Positions 2 through 20,000 of a stretch of 20,000 nucleotides of DNA are shown here, one piece after another. The first letter of the stretch is position 1, and every line of letters starts with the position of its first letter. The notes under the pieces are model-generated. The model did not search any database and had not been told where the DNA came from. It worked only from the letters and a program-made list of their open reading frames with translations. The position numbers and the translations under genes were made by a program. The stretch comes from Asterionella formosa (taxonomy: Eukaryota), in contig NKIB01012713.1 in NCBI GenBank assembly GCA_002256025.1, positions 52,443 to 72,442 on the forward strand, read 5' to 3'.

Positions 2-3000
2 GCGCTGGCTCCCCTTCTTGGGCGGTTCTTCTTCGGCCATTTTTTCACTATCCTTTTCTATCGCGGCCTGTCGCTGCTGCTCTTCCCAAACTAATTGATG
101 CCTCGCCAGTTCTTGTAAACAAGAAAAAATGACACGAGCTCCAAAAGAGTATCCTATCAGGCTCACCGGACGGCGCTCCTCACTGTTCAAGAGGCAATTG
201 GCCAATTCGATACCAGCATAATCAGCACGGAATGATATCAACTGGTACGGATCATCAATGACATTTAAACACGTGGCAATAGCGGAGGGAATGTGAACGG
301 CCGCTACGACACCGCCGATAATAGTCTGTTTTGCAAGTTCCTTGGAAACTTGATTGCCGATTTCAAGAAACATTAAATTAACAACACGGCACAGGCGAGA
401 GAGGAGGTCTGTTTCCCAAGTAATTGTGTAGAGCTCACCACCAAACGACGCTTGCCAATCCCACACAATCACGTCGAAGTCTTTCTTGGCAAACTCTTCT
501 CGTGAGTCAATACTTTCTTCTGACTCCTTACTACCCTTAGTATGGGTGCTAGAGTCGTCAATCTCGTCCGGAACTAACTTTTCTGAGACGCTTGCAATGA
601 CATCTGATTGCGAGGTAACTCTATGCTTGATATCCTTGTCATCTTTCTTTTCTTCTCCTTGATCCCCACTAACTTGAACACGTGGAATAATAACCTTGCC
701 ATCGACCTCGAATGTTTCATTACTAGGAAGTGGCGATACTGTCTTTAAATACACAGGTGTCGCATCTGGAATTTTCTCAGTGACAGTCAGCTCACTTTCC
801 GTTGGCCGTCCTTCAAAAGTACCCACATCAGTACGTGCAGGTTTGGGGGCTCCAACTTCGTCTGTTTCTATGCGATTGGATTCGTCCGATGAAATCTTCG
901 TTGGTTCAACAAGGACGCGCGTTGCTGTAACGAGAGTTAAAGGTTCTTGAGTCTCATCTAATTTCAAGTCATGCCTGAGCTTGTTGTCTACAAAATCACT
1001 AGGATCAATTGTGACGACCTCCGGTTGGTGATCATCCAAGAAATCATTCTGTTTTTCTTTATCAACCAATCTTGGCGAGTTTTCATAATTGAATTGCTCC
1101 TTGTTCGTGAGAAGAACCTCGGCAACATTCTCGTCATTGTATGTAAACTGTAATTTTTTGGGTGAAGCTTTGGGACCATCGTTTGGATCAACTTGGACTT
1201 GAATATCTTGCTCATGGGTGGTTTCATGATCAGCGATTGAGACTGAACGATAATTTAAGCCCGAGTTTCCAATTCTAGATGGTTCACGAGTAGGAGAATA
1301 AGCCAACGGGGCATTCATGGCTTCTAGCATAGCGATATCTTCAATTAATTCCAACTGCACAATTTTCGTACTAACAACGTCTTGTTTGTGTTGCTCATCC
1401 ATCACTTCCGTCATGGCTAATAATTCATCAGGTTCAGTACATTCATCAGATTTAGTATTGTCTTTTGGGTCAAGCAGTTCTGGGGCATGCTGTTTCAGCC
1501 ATATATCATCGTTTTCGTCTCCTCCTACGAAGAATTCGTCATTCATTGCTTCCATCTTGCTGAGCATGGAGTTGCTCTCGAAAACTTCACCCAGTCTATT
1601 GCCATGTGGTAAGACATACTCCTTCAAAGAAGCAGCAATTGTCCTTTCCATCTCCAAAGTCACCACTGGCTCTTCGCCCATGGTATCAAAGGGCAACAAG
1701 TGGGAAGGGTCGCATCCATACCGACGCTCTAATCCTTCCCATAAATGCTTTTCCTTCGTTATCTTTGCATTTTCCTTTTCCTTCTTATTCATGGACTTTC
1801 CGTTCTCCTTCGTTGTATCGATCTTGAGCAGTGCGTGACAAAAGTGGATCTTTTCTGGGCCATGCACTGCAAGAAACCTTTGCAATAGGTCCATTTTGTC
1901 TTGATTGGGTGGATCCGTGGGCATGATGCCCCAAGCTCGTTGAAAGTCTAATTTTTCCAAGAGCCATCCAGTCACCGCAACCGTTGCATGCAAGCCTTGA
2001 ATCTGTACTTCCTCAGCATTTCCGGTTTTGTTTTCTTTTCTGATTTTCCATTCAGTCAACATTTCAGTGCGTTTCTTCATTTTGTAAGCTGCCATGCCAC
2101 CACCTGTAACTCCAAACATGGCTGCAAGGGCAGTGGTGGTTGTGAGGGTAGCAAATGCAGCAGATCCAGTTCCGATACCAAACGCCGAAATGGCCGCGAC
2201 CAAAGCTGGAGCTGCCAGACCTCCAGTAATGGCGAAGATACCTCCGACAACTAAACCAACAGATCCAACTGCCAGCGTACGAATCACGAAACGCTTGGTG
2301 CGCCCTTTTCCTGTTATTGTGGGAGGAGATTCTTCTTCGGAAGTTTCAACAAGCGATCTAAAAATGTCCTCAGCGATGCACTTTTCAACATGTTCGAAAC
2401 GTAGTGTCGCTTGCTTGCGTTTCGACATGTGAGGTTCATACAACGTTTGTTGAACTTCCATATCTTCCCCATCGAAATCGCCTTCTTTTGGTATATCTTG
2501 CTTTTTCAAGAAATACCAGTTGCGTGAACCGGCAGTTTGTATATCAGGTTGTTCCGCATAGACTTCTTCCAAGAGTTCGACGCAAACACTCTTGACAACA
2601 CTTCTCAGCCTCGCATCGTAATTGCCTTTTGATAAGAACAAAATATTCGACAGCAGCATAGTGATACACTTGATCGGTTCTTTCACCTGCTCGGTGCTGG
2701 ACAGTGAAGAGTCTTGCAAGTCTTCGACCTCCAACATGAGGCAGGACGAAACCATGGTCATCAATTCGTACTTGAGGTACTTCATTTGTCGATCTCGACA
2801 ACCCAATTGTGTGATCCAAGACGTGCCTGCTTCTTCTTTCTTTGCGGCAAAGAATGATGTACGGCGAGTATCTGGCAGCTGCCGTATCCTCAAGACTCGA
2901 GCTGCCACTTGAGCTTTTATTTTTCGATAAAGGAAAAGGCGGTCTGTTTTGAGGGGGAGTTTGAGATCATCGAGTTTGACGGGATTGTCCTCCTCGCCTT

Positions 3001-3052
3001 TCTTTGTAGGAGTAGGAGCTACGACGAAGCCATCCTCCTGAGAGGATGTCAT
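2..3052 (-). CDS. DUF726/TMCO4-like membrane-associated alpha/beta-hydrolase (lipase-like) protein, >1000 aa, 3' end outside the window
   Basis: Manual translation gives one frame from the ATG at 3052 (MTSSQEDGF...) to the window edge, with no stop seen; it is probably absent from the ORF track because no stop codon lies in the window. Family motifs appear in order: GNYDARLR (~2603-2626), a Gly/Ala-rich hydrophobic segment (VGLVVGGIFAITGGLAAPALVAAI...LAAMFGVTGGGMAAYKMKKRT, ~2066-2270), VAVTGWL, YTITWE, and RPVSLIGYSFGARVIFSCL with a GxSxG nucleophile elbow at 140-154. Confidence 0.9.
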   Translation of the reverse strand, partial: MTSSQEDGFVVAPTPTKKGEEDNPVKLDDLKLPLKTDRLFLYRKIKAQVAARVLRIRQLPDTRRTSFFAAKKEEAGTSWITQLGCRDRQMKYLKYELMTMVSSCLMLEVEDLQDSSLSSTEQVKEPIKCITMLLSNILFLSKGNYDARLRSVVKSVCVELLEEVYAEQPDIQTAGSRNWYFLKKQDIPKEGDFDGEDMEVQQTLYEPHMSKRKQATLRFEHVEKCIAEDIFRSLVETSEEESPPTITGKGRTKRFVIRTLAVGSVGLVVGGIFAITGGLAAPALVAAISAFGIGTGSAAFATLTTTTALAAMFGVTGGGMAAYKMKKRTEMLTEWKIRKENKTGNAEEVQIQGLHATVAVTGWLLEKLDFQRAWGIMPTDPPNQDKMDLLQRFLAVHGPEKIHFCHALLKIDTTKENGKSMNKKEKENAKITKEKHLWEGLERRYGCDPSHLLPFDTMGEEPVVTLEMERTIAASLKEYVLPHGNRLGEVFESNSMLSKMEAMNDEFFVGGDENDDIWLKQHAPELLDPKDNTKSDECTEPDELLAMTEVMDEQHKQDVVSTKIVQLELIEDIAMLEAMNAPLAYSPTREPSRIGNSGLNYRSVSIADHETTHEQDIQVQVDPNDGPKASPKKLQFTYNDENVAEVLLTNKEQFNYENSPRLVDKEKQNDFLDDHQPEVVTIDPSDFVDNKLRHDLKLDETQEPLTLVTATRVLVEPTKISSDESNRIETDEVGAPKPARTDVGTFEGRPTESELTVTEKIPDATPVYLKTVSPLPSNETFEVDGKVIIPRVQVSGDQGEEKKDDKDIKHRVTSQSDVIASVSEKLVPDEIDDSSTHTKGSKESEESIDSREEFAKKDFDVIVWDWQASFGGELYTITWETDLLSRLCRVVNLMFLEIGNQVSKELAKQTIIGGVVAAVHIPSAIATCLNVIDDPYQLISFRADYAGIELANCLLNSEERRPVSLIGYSFGARVIFSCLQELARHQLVWEEQQRQAAIEKDSEKMAEEEPPKKGSQR

Positions 3053-3205
3053 TGTCTTATTAATGTGGTCGCTAGGGGATGCTCCTATAATATGGCAAGA
3101 CAACTGAAATCTTTGCAAGGTCAATATAACGACTGAGGTCGGAACAAATGGGGGCAACTGTTTCTATGTAGAAGCAAGGGCTAATCCTATTATAGCAAAC
3201 ATGAA

Positions 3206-4442
3206 TACCGGTATACCGCTACCGGTATGTGTGGAGAATAATGAACAGTGAACTACCTGTACCGGTACCAGTACCTGGTACTCCGAGTACCTGGTACCAG
3301 GTTACAAGGTCGTCCCTAGAGTACTTTCCTGTGAACAAGAATGCCAACGTATGTTCACATAATATATATAGGTATATATGTATGCCAAAGAGCGAAACGA
3401 ACATTGATGACCGTTGCGAAAACGTTTAAATTTATTATATACCGGTATATATGTTTAGACAGAAATTAATAATGTGTAAAGAAATGGAACAATGGTTTGA
3501 AACAGGCAGACCAGTGTGAATTGTGACCTACCGGTACCTAGTAGTACAATTGTAAGTGTATCTACCGGTAGCCGGTAGCGGTACCTGGTCGCTACATTAT
3601 TCTTACTACCTGGCCTACCTGTACGGCCAGGTACCTGGTACCAGGTACAAGTTACCCTGGTATGATAACTGGTTCTTCGTATGATGTGACAAAATTATCG
3701 TGGTGGGGGGTAGCCGGTAAAACGGAGTCGAACATTTTCTTTTATGTTTCGGTCCCAGGAAACCTAGTACCTGGTGGTACCGGTACATCGTCATACATAG
3801 GTACCGGAAGCTAATCGCATGCCTCTTATCCTGCTTATATTCTGATACTACATAAGTAGTGCACCGGGTGTGATAGCTACCGGTATGCACTTACCGGATG
3901 ATTCAGTGTCCTGGCCCCCTCAATGTACAATGCCGTGACTGAATTTGACTAATTTTACTTAGGGGGGGCAGGAAAATGACGAGACTTCCCTTAAAATGGT
4001 CCTACCTAAATTTTATCGGTTCTACTGAATGGAGGACTTTTTTTCTAATTAATGTCCTCGTTTCTTTCTGTGAAAAAAGAAAAGATTATCTAGGCTACGG
4101 AAACAATGAGGTTGATGTCACAATGAATTCTACATATGTCTATGAACCGGCAAATACTTAGCGATGTGACATATCCGCTTGGAAAGAGCTCGTTTCGTGA
4201 AACTTTTTAATTGAGGTCCTGGTACCAGCTACTAATCCTACATACATACATTTGCAGAGGAATAACAATGCAGGAGCTATTATGAATAATAGGAACTCCT
4301 TACCTGGTACCAGTTACCTGGTACTTGGAATTTGAGTACCAGGAGTATAAAACAATCAGCAGCAGGCTGCACAAACGGCGACAACGGACAGTCGGACCTC
4401 GCAGCGTCGTTAAATAATTAATAGTAGGAGTAGCTACCGGTA
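3206..4442. repeat. Intergenic cluster of TACCGGTA / TACCWGGTA palindromic motifs
   Basis: Exact copies start at 3206, 3220, 3260, 3272, 3288, 3440, 3529, 3563, 3632, 3639, 3778, 3878, 4301, 4315 and 4435. An 18-bp perfect palindrome GTACCTGGTACCAGGTAC lies at 3631-3648. Confidence 0.9.
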
Positions 4443-4899
4443 GTGTGCCAAAGGCCCGTTCTTATCATTCTGTCACTGGTCGTCATTGGTGCATCATCTC
4501 CCAAATATGATACAAAAATAGCGGTTTGGTTTTTTTGTGTATCACCAACGGTTTTTTGGTTTGATCACTGGTGTATCATGAGTGTATCACTGATACAGTT
4601 TTTGGACCCCTGACCAATCCTGTATCAGTGATACAGCCATTGATTGCTGTGTATCACATCCATTGGCACTGATAAAATAACTGTAAAAAAGCAAGCACAA
4701 CACTCTTAGATATTACGCAAACTAATTTTTTGTTGCATATATATTCTGTATACACTTACTTTCAGCTTTGTCAGTCAAACAAGAATAAGTAGTCCACTCA
4801 TCTTTATACCTGTCTTCCAACATTGACAATATCTTGATTAATTGGCACAATGAGTAGCAAAGTAGAGGATACAACTGAAACTTCTGATGCTGCCAATAT

Positions 4900-6553
4900 T
4901 CCAATTTCGTAAAAGAGTCAATGCAGTGTAGCTGATGAGGACATCAAAGATATTGTTGAGTCGTCTACTGCTTGTCCAACCAACATTGACGAGATGGATC
5001 TTGTTGAAAAGTGGAAACCTCCAACTGCTGGTACACTTGATGTTGACGAGATGGGTCCATCTGAAAATAAAATACCTCCAACTATTGGTGCACTTCTTGA
5101 CATTGACAAGATGGGTCCACCTGGCTGAAAAGACTTTCCTGGTTGTCTAGCCAACAAGGATGAGCTCATCATCTCGCTCATGGTACCAGATGACTTCATT
5201 CTGGATGAAAGTGGGCTGGAATGGATTCATAAAAAAAGGTATTGACATAAAACACATATCTTTCAGGGTTCTTCAATAAATTTGCGTAAGATTTAAAGTG
5301 TCAGGGTACAGGGATGGCAACTACTAAAAAAAAAGGAAGGAATTCATTATTTACTAAGAAAAGACTGGCTGGTTAGTCAACTATACCCTTCTATGATCAC
5401 GTATAATGAAGTGATCGACATCCACAACAACAACAGCAATGAAGAAGAGAGTCGTGGCAATGTTGATATGGACTCTGATTCACAGAAAGAGAAGACAGAT
5501 GAAGCAAGCAGACGAAGATTCTGACTATCTTCTTCATTCGCATACTAGCAGTGATGACGATGACAAATCATTGCCTCTTCCTCCTCCTGTTGCAAAACAG
5601 GGCACAAATAAGAAAAAGGCTATAGTAGCAAAATCAACTCCTCCAAGCAGTGTCACTTGTGCCAACACATATTTTCGTGTCATCAATTTACACATAAGTG
5701 ATGTGTTGATGCTTGGTCAGCCTCCAACTAGCTATGACTGAACTGGATACAAGGAAATTAAGGCACAAATAAAATTTTGATAGACTGCTCATAACTACAT
5801 TCCTTGATGATGACAATGATGACAGCAAAAATCTTGCCTTATCACAAGATCATTATTGGAAACAAATGGGGATAGGCAGTTGTTACCAAAAGACTTATGA
5901 TGCTCTGTCCTCTGTCGAATTTTCTATGGAAATGGGGTACATTAATGATCATTACCAAATTGAATACAGGAACAAAAAAGCCAGGAAGTCGTGATGACTT
6001 TCTTGACTTTGCTGGAAATGACCTTATATATATTACTACCATTTATGGTTATGCCAAGTTCCTAACCTTCTCAATTTTGCTATTCCATTGCTTTCAAAAT
6101 CATCGTTCCGTGAAAGTACCACTGGCTGACTCTTAATGCTTATCATCGAAGACTGTTGGCTCGAAGAAATGAAAATGTTCATCTACTTCATCTAATCATT
6201 CCCATCATTCCTCTTCTATGGTACAAATGGCAAATGCATTAGAGTGTTTTTGAACGAGTAAATGCAGTGAAACTTCAAGTGCTTCTGTCTTCAGCAGTAC
6301 CAAGACGCGAAAAAGAGATCCTAGATGTTCTGGATCTCTATAAAAGTAGTCTCAAGAATGCTCGGAAGAATTTGGAAGAGTTAAAAAATCATGGTTATGA
6401 TTCCGAAAAATCTGATGTAGTTCAGGCTCAATCAGAAATTAAGATATGCAAGAAAAGTTCAGACTGAAATAGAAAATTAGGAAATGCAAGAAAAAGCGGA
6501 ATCGCTATTTTCACCGACTTTCAGAAGGTGAAACATTTGATTAAATCCAACTA
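4900..6553 (+). pseudogene. Remnant of the Harbinger accessory gene (ORF1 position), frameshifted; boundaries approximate
   Basis: Protein-like fragments are broken by stops and frameshifts (IDEMDLVEKWKPP..., SSDDDDKSLPLPPPVAKQGTNKKK...TYFRVINL, DDFLDFAGNDL/YYYHLWL, and a C-terminal coiled-coil-like KSSLKNARKNLEELK). It lies tail-to-tail with the transposase inside the same termini. Confidence 0.6.
4984..5124 (+). repeat. 57-60-bp coding tandem repeat (~2.4 copies)
   Basis: Units at 4984-5040, 5041-5100 and 5101-5124 encode IDEMDLVEKWKPPTAGTLD / VDEMGPSENKIPPTIGALLD / IDKMGPPG. Confidence 0.8.
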
Positions 6554-6589
6554 ATGAATAAATTATTTATTCGTACAAAATAAATTTAT

Positions 6590-7906
6590 TTATTTTATTT
6601 TTTCCCCTTTTCCTCTCTATATTGACAGGAGATCGTTGCAAGCCCAAGGTTCGCAATCTGGTAAGAATCACATCTCGCATCACAGAGCTTCCAGGAAATA
6701 TACTTAATGGTTCCACAGTTGGTAACTAGCCCCAACCAAGGAGTTACAAGAAACTGACTAGAATTATCTCTGTAAGTCTTTGATTATCAACCATAATCTC
6801 GCTATCAATTATCTTCTCATCAATCACATAATTATGAAGTCGAGCACATGAATCAAAAATGCGTGCAGATGTTTTCAAGCTTGTTTATAGGTTGTTTTTC
6901 AGAACACATCATTTTGTCTGAAGAAGACCAAATTTCATTTCTTTTCTTATCCTCAGCTGTGAAAGGAAAAATTTAAATGTATCCTGTGTTCGATCATCAC
7001 GTTGTGAGCCAACAAAGGGAATGAGCTTACATCAAAAAATGTGTATGCTGCATCGCCAAACAGAAAAAAAAACCTGTATTGAATGCTGCAACTTGATCGA
7101 AAATGGAATTTCGTTCAAAAGCTACTTTTGGTCACTGCATTTTCCTAGTGCAATCACACCAAAAGAAATAAATCGTTAGTCAGATTCACAAACAGCCTAG
7201 ACATTGATTCCATATGTCATGTAGTGACAGAAAAAAAAAACCAGGGTTGTTCCCACTTTCAACTAAAATTGGGCGGTTGATGGTGGCTAGGAAGCCGTCA
7301 ATAGCACCAACACATCTTCTTATTACGCCCTCAGAGTGTTTGCATTCAAAGCTGGAAGCCAATTTGATAAATTTTTATTTTTCTTCTAGAAAAATAAATT
7401 TGATTCTTCGCAGTTGAGTACAGCATCAATGAACAAATCACGACATCAATAAAGTGAAGCAATTCTACAACCTTAGGCATGAAAAATGTCGATGTAACTG
7501 CCACCAGCAAACCAATGCAAACCAATGGCCACCACAATTTCGGGAATTATGGGCTGCTCAGAAGTGCCACATATGAAATAATTCCCTGGAATCTGAATTT
7601 CCAGTACTATGCAGGTGAGCTTTTTAAATGCTCTGTGTGAAATTCTGTATGTCTTCTTGAAAGCAATCTTGTGATTGAGTTTTTCGACATGTGATTGCCA
7701 GGAGATTTTTTCGTGGTGCCACTTGTTCCTTCGTTGTCGTCGTCGTTCAGATGAGTGATGCTGCCGTTTACAGCGTCGCCTTCGTCGTTTGGATGAGTGT
7801 TCTTTTTCCTCTGCTTCCTTAGCTAAATGACAGAAGAAGTATCATGATCAATGCTATCATCATCGCTATCATCAAGTAATTCAAAATAGTCGACGGCATG
7901 ATTCAT
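6590..7906 (-). pseudogene. PIF/Harbinger (HARBI1-like, DDE_Tnp_4) transposase pseudogene
   Basis: ATG at 7906 (MNHAVDYFELLDDSDDDS). Motifs in order: FKKTYRISHRAFKKL, VAIGLHWFAGGSYIDI, CVGAIDG (7294-7314), YGINV*AVC, GDAAY (7043-7057), FFLSQLRIRKEMKFGLL, CARLHNY (6828-6848). There are many in-frame stops and frameshifts. Confidence 0.92.
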
Positions 7907-8186
7907 GCAATAATGTGTTTTTATTATAAAATAGTTTAATTATATTTTATGTTGCAGCTTGATATCAAGACCATCATTTTATTCTGGAGGGATATAGGAC
8001 ACATGATCTTCACCAGCCTTTTGCCGTTGAATATCTATGTTACTCCATGATACAATGTTATCATAAATTAGTGATACAGTGTCACTTTTGGAATGAATGA
8101 AATTCAGATCAAATCGAGTTACCCTTGTTGATACATTTTCAAAAAATTTCTAATTCCGTGATACACGAAAAAAATGATAAGAACAG

Positions 8187-8347
8187 CTTATCATTCTGTC
8201 ATTGGTTGTAATTGGTTTATCGTCTCCGCAATATGATACAAAAATTGGCGGTTTGTATCATTTTTTGTATCACCAACGGCTTTTTTGGTCTGATCACCAG
8301 TGTATCATGGGTGTATCACTGATACAGCTTTTGGACCCCTGACCAAT
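8187..8347 (+). mobile_element. Truncated extra copy of the Harbinger left end
   Basis: Diverged direct repeat of ~4461-4618 (CTTATCATTCTGTCA...GTGTATCACTGATACAG.TTTTGGACCCCTGACCAAT). Confidence 0.85.
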
Positions 8348-8349
8348 GT

Positions 8350-9304
8350 AACACGTTTCAGCAATGGTAACTCGATTTAAAATTAATTTTATTCATTCCA
8401 AATTGACACTTAATCGCTAATTTGTATTACAGTGCATCATGGAGTAACAAGGATCGTTAGGGGTGACAGGACAGCTACAAACATCTAGATATATCTGAGC
8501 AGTTATATGCATATGCGTTGCCTAAATTTAGAAAACCGGAGTATAATAACAAATATCATATCATGCTATGGAGCCTGTTTGTACTTGCAACTGTTACCAG
8601 TACGCTGGTACCAGTTACTGAGAGACCCGTCAACATGTTGTCATCAACATATTGACCATGTTGAAAATCGGCTATTTCTCCATCAAAATGGCAAACGAGT
8701 CGCTGCGCCTTTTTCGGTCTAATATATCATTGTATGAACGATGCAATAGAAAAGTAAATATAGATACCTCTTTAAAATTACATATGAAATTTCGAATCTA
8801 CAATGTAGAAGAGCATTCTTTGTCAATTTATAGGAATGCAAATTGAGCTATTGATTTTTTACCATAACAACTAAATCTGCTATGAATGCTAATACGACTA
8901 TAACAATACTATCATATGACAAAAGTGCTTGCAAAAGTGGTGTGAGGCTACTAGACTTTGAATTATAGATGCCATTAGATCAATTGATTGCACCAGTGGT
9001 GCTTTCATGTTGCTTGTGCTGTGTTGCTGATGTTGATTTTCCATCCACCAAAAAATTACATAGTCGGCGCTGGCATTTTTACAGTTATTTTATCAGTTGC
9101 AATGGACGTGATACACAGCAATCAATGGCTGTTTCACTGATACAGCAGTGGTCAGGGGTCCAAAAACTGTATCAGTGATACACCGGTGATCAGACCAAAA
9201 ACTGTTGGTGATACACAAAGAAAAACCAAACCGCTATTTTTGTATCATATTTCGGAGATAATAGACCAATGACGACCAATGATGATAGAATGATTAGAAC
9301 GCCC
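8350..9304 (-). mobile_element. Inverted, internally deleted non-autonomous derivative of the same Harbinger family
   Basis: ~9070-9304 is a reverse-complement copy of ~4454-4690 (left end). ~8358-8450 is a reverse-complement copy of ~8037-8133 (right subterminal: GGTAACTCGATTT...TTCATTCCAAA.TGACACT...CATGGAGTAACA). Confidence 0.75.
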
Positions 9305-9722
9305 AGTGATACCATTGTGCTACCCACGTAGCAAATTGGTGTGTTGTCTACTTAATCTATCCTAAAATAAGCTGCTTGGCACTACTGGTGCCAGCGATTT
9401 GACGCATTTGTTTTCGCCCCGAGCCAGCGCGAAACCGTCAGGAATTTCTAGATGTCGAATTAACACACACCGGAGGACTCCAAGAATTTCACAAACTTGC
9501 TCTTCCAAAGCTATGTACAGTAGGAGACTTGGTGCCTATGTATGCCTCCGGCAATGGGTCTTTGTGAGGAACACCACCAATAGCTACATAAAAATGGAGA
9601 CTATTTTGATAAATCAGTAAAGAAACTAATACTGGTAGATTAATTAAATAGTAACAAATCAGATTGCACACTGCACATGAAGCTGGAGGTAGATACTGAA
9701 TTAGACAGTGAAGTTTCCCATA

Positions 9723-12700
9723 CTATCTCATGTTCACCATATCCTCAAGCTGTGTCTTCAGTGCTTGCTCTGTCTCGTATTTGGTACGAAAATACTTGAC
9801 TTGCGCAGTCAAGATCACAATCTGTTTCTTCAATGCGACCGTACTCTCTGCCGCTTCTGAATTATCCTCTCTTGCTGCAACCCTATGCTTGTCATAATCT
9901 TCACCATTTGCTCGACTTCCCATCTGAGATAGCACCACTTGTCCTCGTGCTGAATTGCCTGCAACTTCAACCGCTTTGAGAGTCTCTATCAAACCCATTG
10001 CGTGGCTCTCCGAAGAAATTAATTGCTTCTTTGTTCCCTCCAACTCCATTTCAAGCTTAGATGACTTCGTCAGAGACATACTCAACGCTTCCTTCATTTC
10101 ATCCATGGTCTTGATAGCCTTCTCATATTCGGCACGGACAACGTCGAGTTCTGATTTCACGTTGTCTTCTTGGAATAAAAGAGAAATCTCAGTCTTGTCA
10201 GGATCTGTCATTAGTCTTTCTTGATGAGTTTCGTGTGGACAATGGTCACTTTGTCCTATGAGGGCCAAGCGAGTGTTGGCAGCTGCGACTCCTATCTTGG
10301 CATCATTGCATTGTTCCCAAGCCGTCTTGAGTTCCTGTCTGAAACGATTGTTTTGAGCCCGCAGCACAGCGACTTCATTATGGAGGCGCTGATGGCTTTC
10401 CCTTGACGATGCGTCAGTTATTCTGCTATCCTGACATGCAGATTCGTCCATTTGAAGGGATTCCAGTTGACGACTTAAAGCCCTGATGTCGGAATCCTTA
10501 CTGGCAAGTGACTTTTGAAGTCTGGAAACTAACTCATTGCTGCCCTTTTTCGTGTCTTCCAGTTCTAATCGGAGACTCTTGATAATGGTTTCGTGAGAAA
10601 GAACAAGGGCTGTCTGCTTCACAAGTGAAGCCTTCAAATTGTCAACTGCATCAGTATCCCTAAGCTCCCTTTTTTTTAACTCTTGGATGATTAAATTCAA
10701 GCGATTGATCTCGTTTTGCATTGGAGAGCAACGATCATTGACTACAGCATCGTCGATCTGATCTCCTTCACCTTCTTCCACCTTTCGACGTTGGAACTTT
10801 ATCTCTTGCAATTCCAAAGTCAGTTGAGAAACAAGATTTGATTTCTCCCTTATCAGGGCGTCATTAGCCTTCACTCTTGCGGCAAGTATCCCCGTCGCAA
10901 CTGACTCGTGAGCTTGTGTTGGGATTTCAGAAGTCGTTACGATCGTATTATGTCGAGAAATCCATTGACCGGGTGGTGGGCCACCTTCGTCCTTTTCTTC
11001 TTCTATTCGTCTTTTCTTGCTTGCAGGCTTCTTCCTAACTGGAGCCTTTTTAATAGCACGAACTGGTGGAACAAACTTTACCAGTGTATCTGGCCCAGGT
11101 ACCAGGTTCACCTCCTTCTTATTCGAGCATCTAATCTTATCGCTTTTTATCCTTTTGAAGGGAACACAACATAAGACACCGTCGGGTAGACAGCTAGCTA
11201 GTATGGAGAATTCCCCGAGCATCAGGGGCTTCTTAATCGAAGGATTCATTATCAATGCATCAACCCTGCGCTTGACAGATCCAACCAAGGTGCTCAACTC
11301 CGTTTTAGAATGCTCGGTGTAACGCTCAAGAAAATAGGTATAATAAACTTGCGTGAATGCGCCAATCCAATGGTATAAATTTTCTTGATGGCAAGCACCT
11401 TCAGTCGAAAACGCCAAGTCCTGTTTAGTAGGGGTCAGCGGTAACCTTCCATGGAAGTCATCCAAAATAATTGTCAAACCCTGAGCATACATCGTCCCTC
11501 CAGAATCCAAATAGAGTAAACCACGAGCATCAGCGTGCTTTTTGATAAGTCTTCCAGATTTCCTGGAGTGTATAAGAAGCGAAGCCTTCATATTATCTTT
11601 ATGTCGATTAGGGTCAAATCCCAAGTATAGATTATACTCATTGTATTTCTTTGGATTGTACCAATCATCTGCTGTTGTCCACGGATTAATCGGATCAACA
11701 TGGAGTGTAAATCTATGAAGTTCAGCCAGCCGGCGTTCCCAGTATTGAAAGGTGATGGAATGCTCGTTGACACGTACGTCAAAATCGGCGGGAACATGTA
11801 AGTAATGCTGTGGAAGTTCCGACTGAAGGATCTCCACCAATTTGTACGGTCCGTCCTTGCCTCGACAATTGTGTGCAACAACTAGAAAGACATATTGTTC
11901 GCCACCCCATTTGGACAAGTCTTGCAAGTGCTTGAGAACACGCTGTTCTCCGTCAGTTGCGTTTCCGTTTCCGTATTCTGTCATGCAATACCGCAACTCT
12001 TTGTCGCTATTTACCAATGCGGAAAGTTCTTCCGCTATAGTATCCTCGTTTAGCCTATAACTTGGCAAGAAGAGGCTTGTTTGTGTCTGCAAACCTTTGG
12101 CAAGAACTCCAAGGCCGATCTTTTTTCTATTCTTGATGCATACCCAACTCAAATCTGAAATAGCAGCGCATGCTTGCTTTACACCAATACCGTTCTCCCC
12201 AATGGCTTCGACATCATTAATTTTGGAGGAACTGTATGCTTCTAGGACTTTCTGAATATCCTGTGGCCGGTTTCTACAGTTATTCTTGATGCATATTCCA
12301 GTAATTTGATCTCGCTGCATGTCGACATCACCGTAAATGTGGATCTTACCCTTAAAACTGTGTGTGCTCATAGTGGCATCCATAGCATTGTCGATCAAGT
12401 CCAGGAGTGCCAAAAGCCCAGAAGTAAAATTTCGTTCCCATGATTTCCACATCCCAATACCGCACACAATGGACGACCTAGCATCAGAAGTGCTAGGGGG
12501 GAGAATTTCAGCTTGGGATGGAGCGTGATCAGGCACGATTGCCATGCTGGTGTTTCCAACTTGCGGTTCGTGTCTATCTTCCTCGCCGCTGTTGTCGTTG
12601 TCCGCATAAGTAGGCGACATGCCGGGGTGAGCGGTGTCCATTTTTGTGGTGAGGGCGAATAATTCAATGTTAGTAGCTGTTGGGAATGGAAAAGCAGTTC

Positions 12701-12773
12701 CGAGCCACAACAAAAGAAAGGAACAATTCGCCTCGCAAAATAAAGTAAGTGCAAGAAGTACCGGTTTGCACAA
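9723..12773 (-). CDS. MORC-family-like GHKL ATPase/S5-fold protein with long C-terminal coiled coil; probable true start at ATG 12641 (972 aa)
   Basis: 1016-aa uninterrupted ORF. It has a GHKL motif I-like ALLDLIDNAMDA (12375-12410), a G2-box-like IGENGIGVKQ, MORC S5 signatures (LLIHSRKSGRLIK, LPLTPTKQDLAF), a basic NLS-like KKAPVRKKPASKKRR and a heptad-rich C-terminal ~380 aa. ATG 12641 has the context ACAAAAATGG. Confidence 0.85.
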   Translation of the reverse strand: MCKPVLLALTLFCEANCSFLLLWLGTAFPFPTATNIELFALTTKMDTAHPGMSPTYADNDNSGEEDRHEPQVGNTSMAIVPDHAPSQAEILPPSTSDARSSIVCGIGMWKSWERNFTSGLLALLDLIDNAMDATMSTHSFKGKIHIYGDVDMQRDQITGICIKNNCRNRPQDIQKVLEAYSSSKINDVEAIGENGIGVKQACAAISDLSWVCIKNRKKIGLGVLAKGLQTQTSLFLPSYRLNEDTIAEELSALVNSDKELRYCMTEYGNGNATDGEQRVLKHLQDLSKWGGEQYVFLVVAHNCRGKDGPYKLVEILQSELPQHYLHVPADFDVRVNEHSITFQYWERRLAELHRFTLHVDPINPWTTADDWYNPKKYNEYNLYLGFDPNRHKDNMKASLLIHSRKSGRLIKKHADARGLLYLDSGGTMYAQGLTIILDDFHGRLPLTPTKQDLAFSTEGACHQENLYHWIGAFTQVYYTYFLERYTEHSKTELSTLVGSVKRRVDALIMNPSIKKPLMLGEFSILASCLPDGVLCCVPFKRIKSDKIRCSNKKEVNLVPGPDTLVKFVPPVRAIKKAPVRKKPASKKRRIEEEKDEGGPPPGQWISRHNTIVTTSEIPTQAHESVATGILAARVKANDALIREKSNLVSQLTLELQEIKFQRRKVEEGEGDQIDDAVVNDRCSPMQNEINRLNLIIQELKKRELRDTDAVDNLKASLVKQTALVLSHETIIKSLRLELEDTKKGSNELVSRLQKSLASKDSDIRALSRQLESLQMDESACQDSRITDASSRESHQRLHNEVAVLRAQNNRFRQELKTAWEQCNDAKIGVAAANTRLALIGQSDHCPHETHQERLMTDPDKTEISLLFQEDNVKSELDVVRAEYEKAIKTMDEMKEALSMSLTKSSKLEMELEGTKKQLISSESHAMGLIETLKAVEVAGNSARGQVVLSQMGSRANGEDYDKHRVAAREDNSEAAESTVALKKQIVILTAQVKYFRTKYETEQALKTQLEDMVNMR

Positions 12774-12828
12774 TGGTACAAGGGAACCGGTAGCGGCATG
12801 GCGGTATTCTGTATAATTACCTGGTGCA

Positions 12829-12929
12829 TCTGCAAGTTGCGGTCATTTTGCTTAAACAAACGATTTAATACAGGATAAAGAAAGCTAAACGTTTAGTTTC
12901 TCCACAATTACATTACAGCAACTTGCTGG
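12829..12929 (+). mobile_element. ~80-bp MITE family, copy 1 (with ~20-bp internal insertion)
   Basis: TCTGCAAGTTGCGGTCATTTTGCTTAAAC...CAGCAACTTGCTGG followed by TA; homologous to 13205-13282. Confidence 0.75.
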
Positions 12930-13080
12930 TACCAGGGTATCTGGTACTACAGGTACCAGGTGGTATCCTCACGAAGACGATCATAAGTACATCAGACTTG
13001 TTAGGTTTCTACTTACAACCTGGTACCCCGGAGTAACTGGGGTGCTCGGAGTACTTTCGAACCAGGTGCCACACCAGGTT

Positions 13081-13158
13081 CCAGCAAGTTACGGTAATTT
13101 AGCTATCTTTATCCTGTATTAAATTGATTATTTAAGCAAAATGACCGTAACTTTCAGA
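13081..13158 (-). mobile_element. ~80-bp MITE family, copy 2 (inverted)
   Basis: CCAGCAAGTTACGGT...ACCGTAACTTTCAGA; its reverse complement matches copies 1 and 3. Confidence 0.75.
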
Positions 13159-13204
13159 ATCACTGGCATCCGGTAACCGGTAACAAGTAACTACACTGAG
13201 GATA

Positions 13205-13282
13205 CCAGCAAGTTGCGGTCATTTTGCTTAAACTAACATTTTAATCTAGGATAAAGATAGCTAAATCACTGCAACTTGAAGG
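13205..13282 (+). mobile_element. 78-bp MITE, copy 3, flanked by TA (Tc1/mariner-type TSD)
   Basis: TA-CCAGCAAGTTGCGGT...ACTGCAACTTGAAGG-TA: imperfect ~15-bp TIRs, with TA at 13203-13204 and 13283-13284. Confidence 0.8.
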
Positions 13283-13812
13283 TACCCATGGTAACCTCAT
13301 ACCTGGTACAGTACCTGGTACCAGGTAGTATAATGACCACGTACCCTCGTTTGATTTTCTGACGAGGTCGATGAACAGCATTTTCAAGCTCTAGACATAC
13401 TGGTATTTCATATTCATTTATTTTACAATACAAAAGCAATACCGGTCCACTTCAGTTTTACAGAGATCCCAAGAACCAAGAAATGTAGTTCTCATGATAT
13501 CGCCATAGCCAATACACCTGGCAATCCATCCAGCAAGTCACCCGATACCATGTACGTGGTCGGTATGACCAGCGCCAGTAATAGTATCATACATGTGTGC
13601 ATGGAGGGAGGCAGGAAGGTCCGGTAATCAGCGAATTGCGCGCACAATATACTAAAAATTCCACGTAGCAGTTTCAACCTACTTCATTGGACGTCTGTCC
13701 AGCTCACCAATTCCGAAATGATGAAAATCTCAAATTATTTCAATTTATTAGATTACCTGTAACCGTTATAAACTTTCAAACAGAAAAGCGCTGCCACCTT
13801 TCACCACAGAAT

Positions 13813-14330
13813 CGCTGACTACCAACTTCAACTTGCTGACTGCGGACTTCTTGTTGCTAAGTGCTGACTTGATTTGCTGAAAATTTGAAATATTCGCTGA
13901 CTGCTGACTTTGTTTGCTGACTGCTAACTTCAACATGCTGATGTCAAACAAGCTACTTTATACATAGGAAGAGAAGAACTATCAATACCGGTGCACAAAT
14001 CATGTCTGCTTTTCATATTAGAATAACTATGGAAACGCATCATCTTTTTGTTGTTGGGATACTGAAAGCAATGCTTTCTACATTCATACTATACTATTGG
14101 GAGTAACATCAACATACCTGGTACCTGGTACTCCATACATGATTATAAACTGTGAAATCAAAATTGATGCCTAAAAAATTCATTGCTATCTACTTCCTGA
14201 TGTTGCTACCACCATGTACCAGCCAGTACTATCATAAAAATGCTGACTTCAACTTGCTAACTGCTGACTGCTGAATTGATTTGCTGAAAATTTGAAAAGA
14301 TCGCTGACTGCTGACTGTTGACTTCAAGTT
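13813..14330 (+). repeat. Two homologous blocks of TGCTGAC(T) heptamer repeats (~13813-13940 and ~14241-14330)
   Basis: Both blocks share ACTTCAACTTGCT.ACTGC and TTGATTTGCTGAAAATTTGAAA....CGCTGACTGCTGACT. Confidence 0.8.
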
Positions 14331-15084: not shown

Positions 15085-15722
15085 TCAAACTTCATCACGG
15101 AATGGTGGATCGGCAGTAGCAGTTGTAGAAAGAGAGGGAATAGCAACAGGAGGAGGTGCAGTAACAACAACCACAGAAATAGGAGGTGTATGGAGAGGAA
15201 ATGGCGGCTGCTGGTCACCACGGTGATTGGTGTCGTCGAATCTTGTAATCAGAGCTTGCCTTGTTTGTGGAACCGGCAAATCACCTGATCGTTTGTACCA
15301 ACGCACCATTAATTTCAATTCTGGCACAAACATCTGTTCTTTTGTTTTGTTCTGTTCCTTCAATGTAAGTACTTTTCCGCGAAGTGTATTGAATTCTTGT
15401 TGCCTTTTTGTTTCTTTTGTACTAATGACAATGTCTGAAATTCGCTTCTGTTCCAGTGTAGCAGCAAGAATATTTGGCCCAAGAAGGGCAAAGGTTTGTG
15501 CAGAGGCCAGTAGTCCTGCTGTTATCCTCTTCTTGTGTCCCTCACTGTGTGAATCCGCTGTCTCCTTTCTCTTTCTAGCTTGGGCCTCCCGGTCGATTCC
15601 ATTTCGCACATCCTCACGTTTGCAAAACTCGTTAATTCTTCCAACAATTGTTCCAGCAAAGCTAGTTTGGAGGTTTAACTCATCAGGAGGGAGAGTGGCA
15701 GTCTCTGTTGGCGCATTGATGT
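15085..15722 (-). pseudogene. C-terminal fragment of a probable pogo-like (DDE_1) transposase
   Basis: Open frame ...PPDELNLQTSFAGTIV...KKRITAGLLAS...ELKLMVRWYKRSGDLPVPQTRQALITRFDDT. It resembles from memory the C-termini of diatom pogo-like transposases. No catalytic domain is present and it is 5'-truncated by the Copia fragment. Confidence 0.5.
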
Positions 15723-15724
15723 CC

Positions 15725-16237
15725 TTAACTGCTAATACAGCAGGCTATCATGGTGCACATGCTGTTCTTCATCATATGAGTCCTGCTCCACCACACGCCA
15801 TTGCTTCATTTTCTCTCACTGGTTTGGCCGTCTCCGCTCAAGGAGTTACTAACACATGTTCTTGCAACAACATTCCCCCGGGATACTGTTGGACGCATGG
15901 TCTTACAAAAAACCATGAACACACTAGCGCCACATGTGCAAACCCTGTCTCGGGCCATCAAAAAACCGCCACACTTGACAAACGCATGGGTGGCAGTGGT
16001 CGCATGTTTAGTGATGGAACTCGACGCAACCGCCCTTCCGCTAGTCTCACCAATGCGGCTATCAACCCCATTCCACCTGCCTGACCAGGAGGGGAGCAAG
16101 TCATGCTATTGGATAATACTAGTAAACCTAGTTTATCTGCTATGCCCAGCCACTTGTCCCCCCATCACGTTAATTGCAGATTCTGGTAGTTCCGGCAACT
16201 ATGCCACCTTGGACCTACATCTACAACGCCGATTACT
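15725..16237 (+). mobile_element. Ty1/Copia (diatom CoDi-like) retrotransposon fragment: gag C-terminus plus start of aspartic protease
   Basis: LTANTAGYHGA...YCWTHGLTKNHEHTSATCANPVSGHQKTATLDKRMGGS (gag zinc-knuckle-type motif), stop TGA at 16082-16084, then LIADSGSSGNY (protease D-S-G motif). No integrase, RT or LTR was seen. Confidence 0.8.
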
Positions 16238-16946
16238 GGTACAGCCGCCACAAAAAAAACGCTAGTCAAATATGATCACCCAAATTAATTATTTGGGTGG
16301 CCCAATATGACGAATTTAGCTACGTACATAATTTAAGGGTATGACATCACAAAAAAATATGATGCATCATACAATATATATGAACGCAGTGAACTAAAAT
16401 AGTTTCGACAACTTCCATAATTATTTTAGAAACCCACATAATTTTTGGGGACAACTGACAATATTTTCTTGCGACATGAAGAAAAATTGGTTCAGTAATA
16501 ATCTCTATAATACGGTACTTTTCTCTACAATTCGCAACATTTCCGTTCACAAATATTCTTCACTCTGTCTACCATTAATTCTGTTAGTTTGCTCCCATTT
16601 TATCTTGACTTTGATCTCATTAATACCTCAAGGTTAAAAATATATATATGCTAGTCAAACAAATAGTTATGTGTAACCAATTTATTTTTTTCAATTTCAT
16701 TCTACAATCGCAAAATCAATCAATTAATCGCTTTGCTATATAGTTTATATTGATACTTTCTATAGAACGTGATTCTCAAACCAATACGACAAGCAATGGA
16801 TGTTCATTCTTGCAGCTGGATGCTGTAACTAATCGCAAGATTGCTTGGCTACTCATAGTACTTGCAGGAATCCCTGTTAGTACTACCGGTAGATCAATTC
16901 ATAGCAAATGAGCCGGCTGCTCATTCTCATTGCTCGGATTGATTGT

Positions 16947-18331
16947 CTTTTGTAGAAAGAGGGAAGAATTTGCAGAGTGAGTTGATGAGAAAAAAAATTA
17001 CGAAGCCATGATTTTGGTTCTGCTGTGCTCCTTACCATGTTCCCCAATGGCCAACCCAGCCCTGATCATATGATTGTCTGCGATCAGTGAACAACAATCG
17101 CAGAGTGAGTTCACGAACAAACAATCGTTACAAAGGCATCATTTTCGTTGTGCTTAGCTACCATGCCGCAGCCTGATTCCCAACAAATCTCTCGCTCAAC
17201 AGATTGATTGTCTGTAGACAAAGAACAGCGTTTGCAGAGTAAGTTCGTGATCAACAAGCAAGTAACAAGCACACAATCAAGCCCTTTTTATAATTCATTA
17301 CAAATAGCAATTCATGCGCTAACAATTCCGAACAAAGACGAAGGAGAATAGGAGAGGAGATCCGCCCACAACAAGCAACAGCAAACAATATCAGCAGAAG
17401 GCAAGAAAACATTGCACTTGCTTACCATGTATATATTCATCCCCTTTGCATCAGAGGAATCATTTCGACAATGCGAAAAACAAATGATTGATAGCCTGCC
17501 TGACACAGAGCACAACACATTTCATTCTTCCCGAGGTTCAACCCTGCCCTGCCAAAAACAGTTTGATTGTCCGTAGGAAAAGAACAAGGTTCACAGAGTA
17601 AGTTCATGACTTGACCACTGTTCCAATTCCAAACGGAACAAGAAAGAGGAAGAACGAAATGGAGGTAGAGGAACTACAACAACAATCAAACATAGTTCAG
17701 AGCACAAGTCGAAGAACACGATGGTGCAGAGCAACAAGAGGAAGAACAACAACAATCTAACACATGACCTGTCTCCATTTTCCAAAAAATTAACTGCTTA
17801 CCATATATTTCTCGAACTTTCAGATGCATCCTTTTTGTACTACTGACAAGGAATAACAAAATAATTGCCTGTCTGTTTCTTCCAGAACCGGCCCGCAACA
17901 GAGTCCTCGTTGCTTTTTTGGAAGTGAAGAACATGATTCACAGAGTAAGATCATAGTAGCTGTTTAAACTCACACAAGACCTTTTTCTATTTCTTAACAA
18001 ACAATGCATATTCAGTTCAAACGGAGGGCAAAGAACAATCAAGAGAAGGGTATACAGCCACAGTAACCACAATGCACAACCAGCCAGCTCCTTGTTTCCA
18101 ACAATAAGATCCAAAGGGATAACAGCAGAAACAACAGATAGCGACAATGTCAATGACAACGACAACAATAAACACACACGACAACAATAAACACAACCAC
18201 AATGCATAATGCATTTTACCACGAAAGTGATAATTTGTTCCTTCACCACGTTCTAGCCAGTAGCTGTTTTCCATTAAAAGAAACCTGGTGCGGACGGTCC
18301 TCCTCCTATACCTTTGCATTGTACTAGCCAT
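16947..18331 (-). pseudogene. Decayed multi-intron gene built from repeated exon-intron modules
   Basis: Intron-like units at 18219-17913, 17801-17571, 17425-17212, 17161-17078 and 17035-16947. They have TG|GTA donors, a shared CTYACTCTG branch-point region and AG| acceptors (mostly AG|ACAATCA; one mutated to GG). Confidence 0.5.
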
Positions 18332-19153
18332 GTGTACATTCTACATAACAAAAAGCTGGTGCGCAGTCTATGCTTTGTCAGTCAGTATACTTTTTGGCGA
18401 GCAATGCAGACCTCACGAAAATCTGACGAACATGGTGAATCGTCACGATTTTCAACGTTGTGATTTGCAAAAGGTTAGTACCAGTAATGCCGCTAGATTG
18501 CACTACATAGGATGTCTGAATTAATTCAACTATTTTTCCCACCTTTTCGGAGCGTCTATAAGCAAAACTACCGCTACAATGAAGACTCCAACAGGAAAAA
18601 TATCTAGCTGTAGCAAATCTATCGAATATACGAGTTTTTTTACACAGAAATAGCTGTTGCATGTATTCGCGTTCATCTGATGATCATGTCATTGTAGTCG
18701 GCCTGAGTAGCAAATAAAAGCTGCAACCAAAGCTATTTCTTTTCGGAAAGGCTACAATTTGTCTACAATGATTATTTTATCAAATGAAATTCGGTTAACA
18801 AATCAAATCCAAAGAAACGTTGGTAGATATGTTTTATATATACTGGCACCCGTAGTTCTATAGAAAAAGGAGTCGCATACCGGTACTATATTAGTGTTCA
18901 TCGAATATCGTTGTAGTCAGTCGAAAATGAGAGGTATTTCCGAGATACTTCAAATAGTAAACAGTCATATCTCTAGCAAGTGGCTGGCCTTAGTGAAAGT
19001 AGCATTGGATGTATAGCTGTGTTAAATCGAATTGAATGAGATAATTTATTTTGTGGTTTTACAAATGATGGATCAAATATCTATATCGGCCGTTGTCTCT
19101 TTCTATTAAACAAATATCGGTACATAATCGCTATTTAATCGTGTTTTATCACC

Positions 19154-20000
19154 ATGAACGACGACGATTGCTGTTTGATATGTGGTAAGGGTCCATTTGT
19201 TTCCCTTCACCGTCATTACGCACATAGCCCCGAATGCGAAACAGCTGCTGAGTTGTTTCGTAAACCAGCAACTGGTCCAGACGACGGTCAGGAAGAATAT
19301 GATGGATTTCATCAATCTCCACCATCACCTGCTGATGACTTTTCGTCGTCATTAAAGAAAAGGGCCAAAATTTGTCATGTTCAAACACTACATTTTGGCG
19401 ATCATACCAATATATATGACACTGATCAAAAAGAAGATGAAGAAAATACAAGCGAAATAGTGGTACAGGATGAAACCAATACTATTCCAGTCCTGAGCAC
19501 CACAGGGATTAGGTTTTCCTCCGCCGATCCTGGTATACCATTCTCAGTTGGCGATGTAATGAAGTCTCGACTGCTTAGTCTTTTGCTCGGCACCCGTTCT
19601 CCTCTTTATATGTATGATCAAATCATGAGTTTCTGCAGCACAGCTCAGGAAGCTGGATTCATTTTTGAATCTTGTCCTCCCAGGAGGACCACTGTTCTGA
19701 AAGAATTTCAAAACCGATTTAACATGAATGATTTAACTCCCCAGGTGAAACAGGCCATATTGCATGATGGAAAACTGATTGATGTTGTATGTTTTGATTT
19801 CATGGCTCAGGTTAAGAATCTCTTGACAAATGACATACTAATGTCACCACAAAATGTGTCATTTGATTTCGTCAATCCGTGTAAAGCACCACAACCCACC
19901 AGTGTCAGATCCGAATTTCACACTGGTACCTGGTGGATAGATGCCCATGAATATTTATGTTCTCAGCCAAATGACTTCCTTGTTCCACTCATGTTCTTTA
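19154..20000 (+). CDS. Plavaka-like (CACTA/CMC-related) transposase, N-terminal 282 aa, running off the window
   Basis: Stop-free frame from ACCATG at 19154. It has an N-terminal Zn-finger-like CLICGKGPFVSLHRHYAHSPEC, then SPLYMYDQIM, VVCFDFMAQVKNLL and SEFHTGTWWIDAH...DFLVPLMFF, matching the Plavaka E-x-x-T-G-x-W-W...P-I-I-L pattern that precedes the first catalytic Asp. Confidence 0.8.
   Translation, partial: MNDDDCCLICGKGPFVSLHRHYAHSPECETAAELFRKPATGPDDGQEEYDGFHQSPPSPADDFSSSLKKRAKICHVQTLHFGDHTNIYDTDQKEDEENTSEIVVQDETNTIPVLSTTGIRFSSADPGIPFSVGDVMKSRLLSLLLGTRSPLYMYDQIMSFCSTAQEAGFIFESCPPRRTTVLKEFQNRFNMNDLTPQVKQAILHDGKLIDVVCFDFMAQVKNLLTNDILMSPQNVSFDFVNPCKAPQPTSVRSEFHTGTWWIDAHEYLCSQPNDFLVPLMFF

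Follow-up and report, generated by a model that had tools for sequence, protein, structure and literature searches.

An outward-pointing array of duplicated spliceosomal-type introns near the left end of a giant Plavaka element

The stretch of DNA analysed here (20,000 nucleotides, hereafter the window) closes with the left arm of a Plavaka element, in which five exon-intron modules lie on the minus strand, divergent from an intronless transposase gene. A metagenome scan for this transposase yielded six loci, two of which (L001 and L002) match positions 16218-20000 of the window at 97% while their flanks differ. This confirmed that the array belongs to the Plavaka element, and since the similarity to L001 and L002 starts at 16218 between different flanks, we place the left end of the element there. 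The array sits 0.7-2.1 kb inside this end and points outward, away from the transposase. The features of the arm, in window positions, are as follows.

16218..16240, plus strand: left end of the element, reading 5'-CATCT (CATTT in L002) and bordered by three different flanks
16786..16946, minus strand: last exon (E6), from the spliced poly(A) contig (L001 674-836); its length is a minimum
16947..17035, minus strand: intron 5, 89 nt, shortened to 86 nt in the spliced allele (joint L001 836 to 924, run X8)
17036..17077, minus strand: exon 5, 42 nt here and 43 nt in the allele that is transcribed; it shares homology with the first part of exon 3
17078..17161, minus strand: intron 4, 84 nt, donor GTAGCT here and canonical GTAAGC in other copies
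17162..17211, minus strand: exon 4, 50 nt, a length indivisible by three in three of three copies
17212..17425, minus strand: predicted intron 3, 214 nt, body homologous to that of intron 1
17426..17570, minus strand: exon 3, 145 nt (138-174 nt in other copies)
17571..17801, minus strand: predicted intron 2, 231 nt, with a GG end in three of three copies
17802..17912, minus strand: exon 2, 111 nt, weakly homologous to exon 3
17913..18219, minus strand: predicted intron 1, 307 nt (288 nt in L001 and L002)
18220..18331, minus strand: exon 1, counted from the ATG as far as donor 1; the transcription start lies further upstream
18833..18840, minus strand: candidate promoter element, TATA-like TATATAAA, read from the sequence
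18645-18774 and 18887-19033, minus strand: two inverted, decayed copies of the right arm's 194-bp tandem repeat, found with nhmmer
19154..20000, plus strand: 5' part (282 codons) of the intronless 950-aa Plavaka transposase, 99% identical to P0001

All coordinates and lengths that the first-pass annotation had given for the five modules match the sequence. On the minus strand the donors lie at 18219, 17801, 17425, 17161 and 17035 and the acceptors at 17913, 17571, 17212, 17078 and 16947, which delimits introns of 307, 231, 214, 84 and 89 nt and internal exons of 111, 145, 50 and 42 nt. The ATG at 18331 indeed opens 37 codons that are in frame with the 111-nt exon when the two are joined; in L001 and L002, an AG 5 nt further upstream would make this second exon 116 nt long. 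Upstream of the ATG, a GT at 18481 and candidate AGs at about 18370 and 18341, all on the minus strand, could delimit a sixth, unrelated intron. Taking as the mark of a U2-type intron a GT donor and an AG acceptor preceded at 20-35 nt by a branch point, we found this arrangement in the array: GT donors are present in five of five introns, AG acceptors in four (GG in intron 2), and the branch motif lies 28-33 nt from the acceptor. Introns 1-3 are strongly T-rich (41-42%), introns 4 and 5 contain only 31-32% T. The GG at acceptor 2, which had already been noted for the window, and the 50-nt exon 4 are common to all three copies (window, L001 and L002) and are thus not private decay of the window copy. 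Altogether the array introns are supported as minus-strand introns of the spliceosomal type, one of which, intron 5, was seen spliced (see below).

Judged by its PF18759 domain, its C(2)C and H(3-4)H motifs and its left terminus, the carrier is a Plavaka (CMCT) element. The transposase P0001 (179 cluster members) matches PF18759 with an E value of 5.7e-14, over the curated cut-off, and contains CREC at 412 and HQQMH at 647, which correspond to C(2)C and H(3-4)H; this criterion is taken from PMC12730594, and the comparison concerns the motifs as such. The PlavakaB elements of fungi likewise have a PF18759 transposase, C(2)C and H(3)H motifs and a 5'-CATC/CAT terminus, but the fifth terminal base differs (CATCA versus CATCT/CATTT here) and, in contrast to PlavakaB, no TET/JBP gene was seen here (PMC12730594). 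Like the giant Plavaka elements of red algae, as described in bioRxiv 10.1101/2025.02.11.637652, L001 combines a transposase, a length of more than 12 kb, further genes and tandem repeats. Its transposase ORF is whole, and the element family is young. Most of the rest of the element can be seen in L001: next to the intronless transposase gene there are a long gene convergent with it, a third gene that is spliced and, at the right, the 194-bp tandem array. Both the window and L001 stop short of the right terminus. The decayed copies of this 194-bp repeat in the left arm (18645..19033; nhmmer E values 5.6e-8 and 1.7e-7) lie between the array and the transposase, in a putative two-way promoter region. 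Within this further part of the element (L001 5877-12916), the convergent gene has a frameshift near 7700-7770, ORFs at 8310-10094, 7685-8773 and 6088-7767 and three internal peptide repeats, and the spliced plus-strand gene (10375-12337) has a counterpart in L005; neither of these cargo genes gave a significant Pfam match. L005 and L006 represent a sister Plavaka family with 47% transposase identity. In L005 the transposase is followed by a 488-codon ORF (3724-5190) with no Pfam match, whose HxD...H pattern we take to resemble that of 2OG-Fe(II) oxygenases. Viral contigs and prokaryote genomes gave no transposase loci, but these collections are ill-suited to such a search and the negative result carries little weight.

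Donors, branch points and pyrimidine tracts are what the five modules still have in common. On the minus strand of the array the branch-point motif is present five times; the plus strand has none, nor does any other part of the 20-kb window. When profiles of the 3' core were built from four introns at a time, each recovered the fifth, with E values of 4.6e-4, 1.4e-12, 1.2e-11, 3.9e-8 and 7.4e-4, the best unrelated site scoring 8e-3. A weak core match at 13348-13386 (E 0.016) lacks intron structure and was rejected. The last 50 nt of the introns are more alike than shuffled sequences in ten of ten pairs (z 2.1-10.2). Preferential conservation at the splice positions, by which an intron array had been set apart from an ordinary decayed minisatellite, is present among the five modules: ungapped identity is 0.70-0.78 around donors and 0.68-1.0 around branch points, compared to 0.14-0.40 in the flanks. 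Part of the core conservation nevertheless reflects recent ancestry, since introns 4 and 5 are similar along their whole length. In further copies, donor 3 is lost in P0199 and reads GC in P0186 and P0194, although these states were taken from translated ORFs and are weak because the T of the GT is the wobble base in the commonest frame. Tandem Repeats Finder did not detect the array, an Rfam search over 16200-19200 returned no RNA family (best E 3), and the predicted folds of introns 4 and 5, the two examined in this way, are as stable as those of shuffled sequences (z 0.45 and -0.28).

Part of the region is contained in ten runs that are recorded as RNA. Of 17 runs listed, four (X1, X2, X8 and X11) were compared with L001 1-12400; the X8 results are those among the matches listed (8 of 15 records). 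In the poly(A) run X8, a 214-nt contig with a depth of 5.3 connects L001 836 with 924, adding a single letter and showing no microhomology. Read on the minus strand, this joint removes intron 5; its donor is exactly the one predicted, and its acceptor lies 3 nt upstream of the prediction. Exon 5 is represented in this contig by 33 aligned letters plus loose-end letters, and the contig extends 6 nt into intron 4, which stays unremoved. The extra C at L001 837 occurs as an allele in X2 and X11, and P0201, an ORF from another copy, reads as a tandem acceptor at the intron-5 joint, with two wobble positions unfixed; the joint is therefore best read as an 86-nt GT-AG intron. It may also stem from a DNA copy without the intron.

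The predicted junctions thus fared unequally: that of intron 5 was borne out by one contig from one of four runs, and for introns 1-4 no splicing was seen in the four runs, which were poorly suited to show it; that X8 lacks cover over exons 1-4 does not speak for absence. X1, X2 and X11 showed no joint at any predicted boundary; X1 has a loose end at L001 1059, at intron 4. X1 covers two presumed introns of the cargo genes unspliced and the whole element evenly, so that it is DNA-like and uninformative on splicing. Six further joints lie off the predicted splice sites; they were read as divergent segments of variant copies and left unused. Over the terminal 250 nt of the element (window 16218-16470, L001 105-359), X8 contains two contigs of depth 366 and 153, one of which runs on into 478 nt of other, flanking sequence; the element end perhaps lies here inside an abundant host transcript. 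Summed contig depth, which is not a measure of copy number, is higher over the outer left arm (window 16218-18500, L001 105-2400) than over the body in X1 (138-477 versus 43-147) and likewise in X11 (12-42 versus 0-13), and at L001 2399 many variant contigs of X1 give way to single long ones. Such an excess may point to a right arm that mirrors the left one, or to short derivatives with the same arm.

Two origins had been considered for the array, tandem amplification of an exon-intron module and a family of introner-like mobile introns. The former was borne out by shared exon and intron bodies. Likeness above chance was found between the bodies of introns 1 and 3 (z 5.0), 4 and 5 (z 5.3) and 2 and 3 (z 2.5), and of exons 3 and 5 (z 4.7) and 2 and 3 (z 2.8), all remaining exon and intron body pairs being at chance level. 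The module has been duplicated in two forms, a long one (introns 1-3) and a short one (introns 4 and 5). Five insertions of a mobile intron into one gene would account for five introns that resemble one another and have a phase context in common, but this origin is highly improbable: the likeness extends into both flanking exon ends and into exon bodies, intron lengths vary 3.6-fold, and neither a terminal inverted repeat nor a duplicated target was seen. A profile search moreover found the 3' core in no other gene of the 20-kb window and in none of the six metagenome loci. Since homology reaches into exons and intron bodies and no copy occurs outside the array in these sequences, we conclude that the introns arose by tandem duplication and not as introners. 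Consistently, similarity beyond the intron is treated as a mark of duplication, and such cases are excluded from introners, in PMC9860276; introners as described there resemble the array in being several similar spliceosomal introns, but they are dispersed and their similarity stops at the intron boundaries, whereas the array introns are adjacent and share exon sequence. Searches of viral contigs and prokaryote genomes gave no match to the core pattern (ill-suited collections of little weight), nor did the sister family, where the DNA upstream in L005 and L006 (only 546 and 780 nt) is too short to tell. The array is thereby a clean natural case of intron gain by duplication of an exon-intron module, one that could be mistaken for introners.

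The peptide repeat that the first-pass annotation had read from the exons turned out to be merely the translation of the 7-nt exon start: the same seven bases open four array exons, and all exons close with a shared (A)TG. A coding accessory gene comparable to TnpA did not stand up either, as exon lengths and frames vary freely between copies and no family match was obtained. What could still be argued is a small protein of the TnpA or ORF0 kind, with exons 1-3 encoding a basic product of 120-140 aa in an active lineage, and this we regard as improbable. In L001 and L002 the 145-nt exon is 147 nt long and open, and exons 1-3 (37 + 37 + 49 codons) join in frame free of stops. A search with the ORF that spans exon 3 returned 21 ORFs, apparently all of them from copies of this arm; in the 13 with both ends visible, the exon measures 138, 145, 145, 147, 147, 147, 149, 152, 153, 168, 168, 174 and 174 nt. 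Nine of these lengths are multiples of three, as a protein would demand, but a search by open frame is biased towards such lengths, seven of the nine copies switch frame internally, and four of the 13 lengths are not multiples of three. In run X1 the 145-nt form predominates, and joining the exons requires the GG acceptor.

Between the window and L001, exons 1-3 differ at 9 of 348 sites and the transposase at 4 of 846; eight of the array differences are non-synonymous and one is synonymous, a weak count given that young transposase copies show a similar ratio and the exons are not separable from the transposase by it. In the diverged copy P0208 (one of nine matches), exon 1 differs at 6 of 18 residues and the pseudo-translated intron at 7 of 40; judged by this copy, exon 1 is diverging faster than the neighbouring intron, which points to an absence of protein-level constraint. 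Single exons and read-through ORFs of the array gave no Pfam match, and their best Atlas scores (0.82 and 0.76) are leads only; homologue searches returned only what appear to be copies of this arm. A conserved protein thus appears unlikely, and a short peptide may be made in one lineage. Because exon lengths and frames drift, acceptor 2 is GG and no family was found, we take the array to be non-coding.

We tentatively interpret the array as an outward spliced non-coding unit whose splicing is kept for a cis role in the left arm of the Plavaka element, a reading that we consider plausible and hold with less than even confidence. Its first part, that the array is a spliced non-coding unit made by duplication, is probable: the array travels with the element, its last intron is spliced in poly(A) RNA, and its frames drift while its splice signals stay. 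Set against this are the extent of the RNA evidence (one of five introns, in one contig from one of four runs) and the share of recent ancestry in the core conservation, with introns 4 and 5 alike throughout. If this identity is granted, a cis-activating role would be slightly the likelier outcome, and action on the shared promoter region is favoured over a neutral relic only narrowly. The transcript would start in a 0.8-kb region that the array has in common with the intronless, divergently oriented transposase gene, and selection would keep the act of transcription and the loading of the spliceosome rather than the product. A run of splice sites could then stabilise outward transcription, and this in turn could keep the arm and the shared promoter active and gene-like. 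The host is probably a freshwater diatom, to judge by the habitats of the runs and by motifs; to our knowledge, no comparable splicing-based cis system is known in diatoms. In mammals, lncRNA splicing and conserved splice sites act in cis, as illustrated by the splice-site deletion in Blustr and by enhancer-linked lncRNAs with conserved splice sites (PMC6884709), and introns protect from HUSH silencing (PMC8770142). That the precedents are all mammalian counts against a cis role, and the GG acceptor 2 in three of three copies and the lost or GC donor 3 in some copies argue against strict selection.

The array could instead be a neutral passenger, a decayed gene built from repeats, once coding or captured, whose residual splicing has no present role. 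This we consider rather unlikely, although much of the detail would suit it: the GG acceptor is fixed, donor 4 is weak and the 50-nt exon is present in three of three copies; indels are frequent, and one unit has another exon after donor 4 (loose end at L001 1044); the RNA support is thin; and exons 1-3 have accumulated differences at a higher rate than the transposase (9/348 versus 4/846, window versus L001). Decay without function fits less well with the survival of donor and branch motifs in five of five modules, at spacings of 84 to 307 nt, while exon and intron interiors are near chance in most pairs, and it sits uneasily with a young element family whose transposase ORF is whole in L001.

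The orientation of the unit towards the terminus would also be expected of an outward cassette that spares the host, in which a promoter and spare splice sites read into flanking host DNA or, in a variant, host read-through transcripts splice past the element. Such a cassette has precedents (bioRxiv 10.1101/2023.06.05.543741 and PMC4859970), and the deep X8 contigs over the first 250 nt, one of them entering the 478-nt flank, are consistent with it. It is nonetheless unlikely, and distinctly more so than a passenger, since the array stops 730 nt inside the terminus, which makes clean removal of the element by splicing impossible; from the terminal 250 nt to the array the depth is down to about 2.5, and the deep terminal contigs are thus probably not continuous with the array; and the contigs carry no strand information. 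Reading the cores on the plus strand, either as 21-nt micro-exons of an inward transcript or as a protein-binding subterminal repeat without splicing, is highly improbable. Three of the five cores do show YAG, 21 nt and GTRAGT, but GTRAGT is simply the branch point in reverse complement, the sole clean joint takes out a minus-strand intron and thereby deletes such a micro-exon, no plus-strand joint was found in the four runs, and the five conserved minus-strand donors would be left unexplained.

Returning to the spliced non-coding unit with a cis role, several known systems share single properties with it. Blustr-type lncRNAs resemble the array in that splice motifs are kept, exons drift and the adjoining gene can be activated in cis; they are mammalian, host-encoded and without tandem copies, and the cis effect shown there would be an extrapolation for the array (PMC6884709). 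The LINE-1 antisense promoter with ORF0, which encodes a 70-aa protein, combines outward transcription from an element end with splice donors (PMC4859970), and Mutator has an outward-reading promoter in its end region (bioRxiv 10.1101/2023.06.05.543741); LINE-1 and Mutator read into host genes, whereas the array keeps five full introns and the last exon inside the element. Among giant algal elements, the red-algal PAG1-3 genes are protein-coding, with domains, and no outward spliced non-coding unit is described in the part of that report considered here (bioRxiv 10.1101/2025.02.11.637652); giant EnSpm elements are described from a brown alga in PMC12477816. Searches of open-access full text turned up no account of a transposon arm with a non-coding intron array built by tandem duplication.

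A wider conjecture, which we regard as unlikely, is that the arms of giant algal Plavaka elements carry duplication-built non-coding intron arrays whose sole product is splicing, a "splicing decoy". If true, such a decoy would be a cis device that disguises the element as a host gene, keeps the transposase promoter active and blunts silencing, and it might have a mirror image in the other arm and recur in further families within this genome. The helpers known so far from giant DNA transposons of algae and fungi are proteins, thought to counter silencing; a non-coding unit that is retained because of its splice sites would differ from them in kind. It would also provide a compact, multi-copy test of whether splicing itself protects or activates a mobile element outside animals. 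Should the array be neutral, it would be no more than a decayed passenger, of an ordinary sort, on an element of known type.

The rest of the window contains further genes and mobile elements. The left flank of the Plavaka element (15740-16217, plus strand), which was cut by the insertion, has no Pfam match; by motif we take it to be a Copia-type gag zinc knuckle and the start of a protease. Next to it, a 219-codon ORF (15085-15744, minus strand), also with no Pfam match, presumably resembles the C-terminal part of a pogo/Tc1-type transposase. Short inverted and direct repeat clusters at 12824-13286 and 13814-14330 are possibly small non-autonomous elements. An intronless ORF of 1039 codons (9723-12842, minus strand), with a long coiled-coil-like tail and a weak match to the GHKL ATPase family PF13589 (E 0.0015, below the cut-off), is in our assumption MORC-like. 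Three related ends of about 120-230 bp (4461-4696, 8187-8348 and 9069-9282) occur in both orientations with at most 91% identity over 122 nt, and decayed ORF pieces between them (7473-7841) resemble, as we presume, a Harbinger-type transposase; together these ends and ORFs are nested DNA transposon remnants. At the left edge of the window (2-3163, minus strand) lies a DUF726 gene (E 3.3e-39), probably an ordinary host gene.
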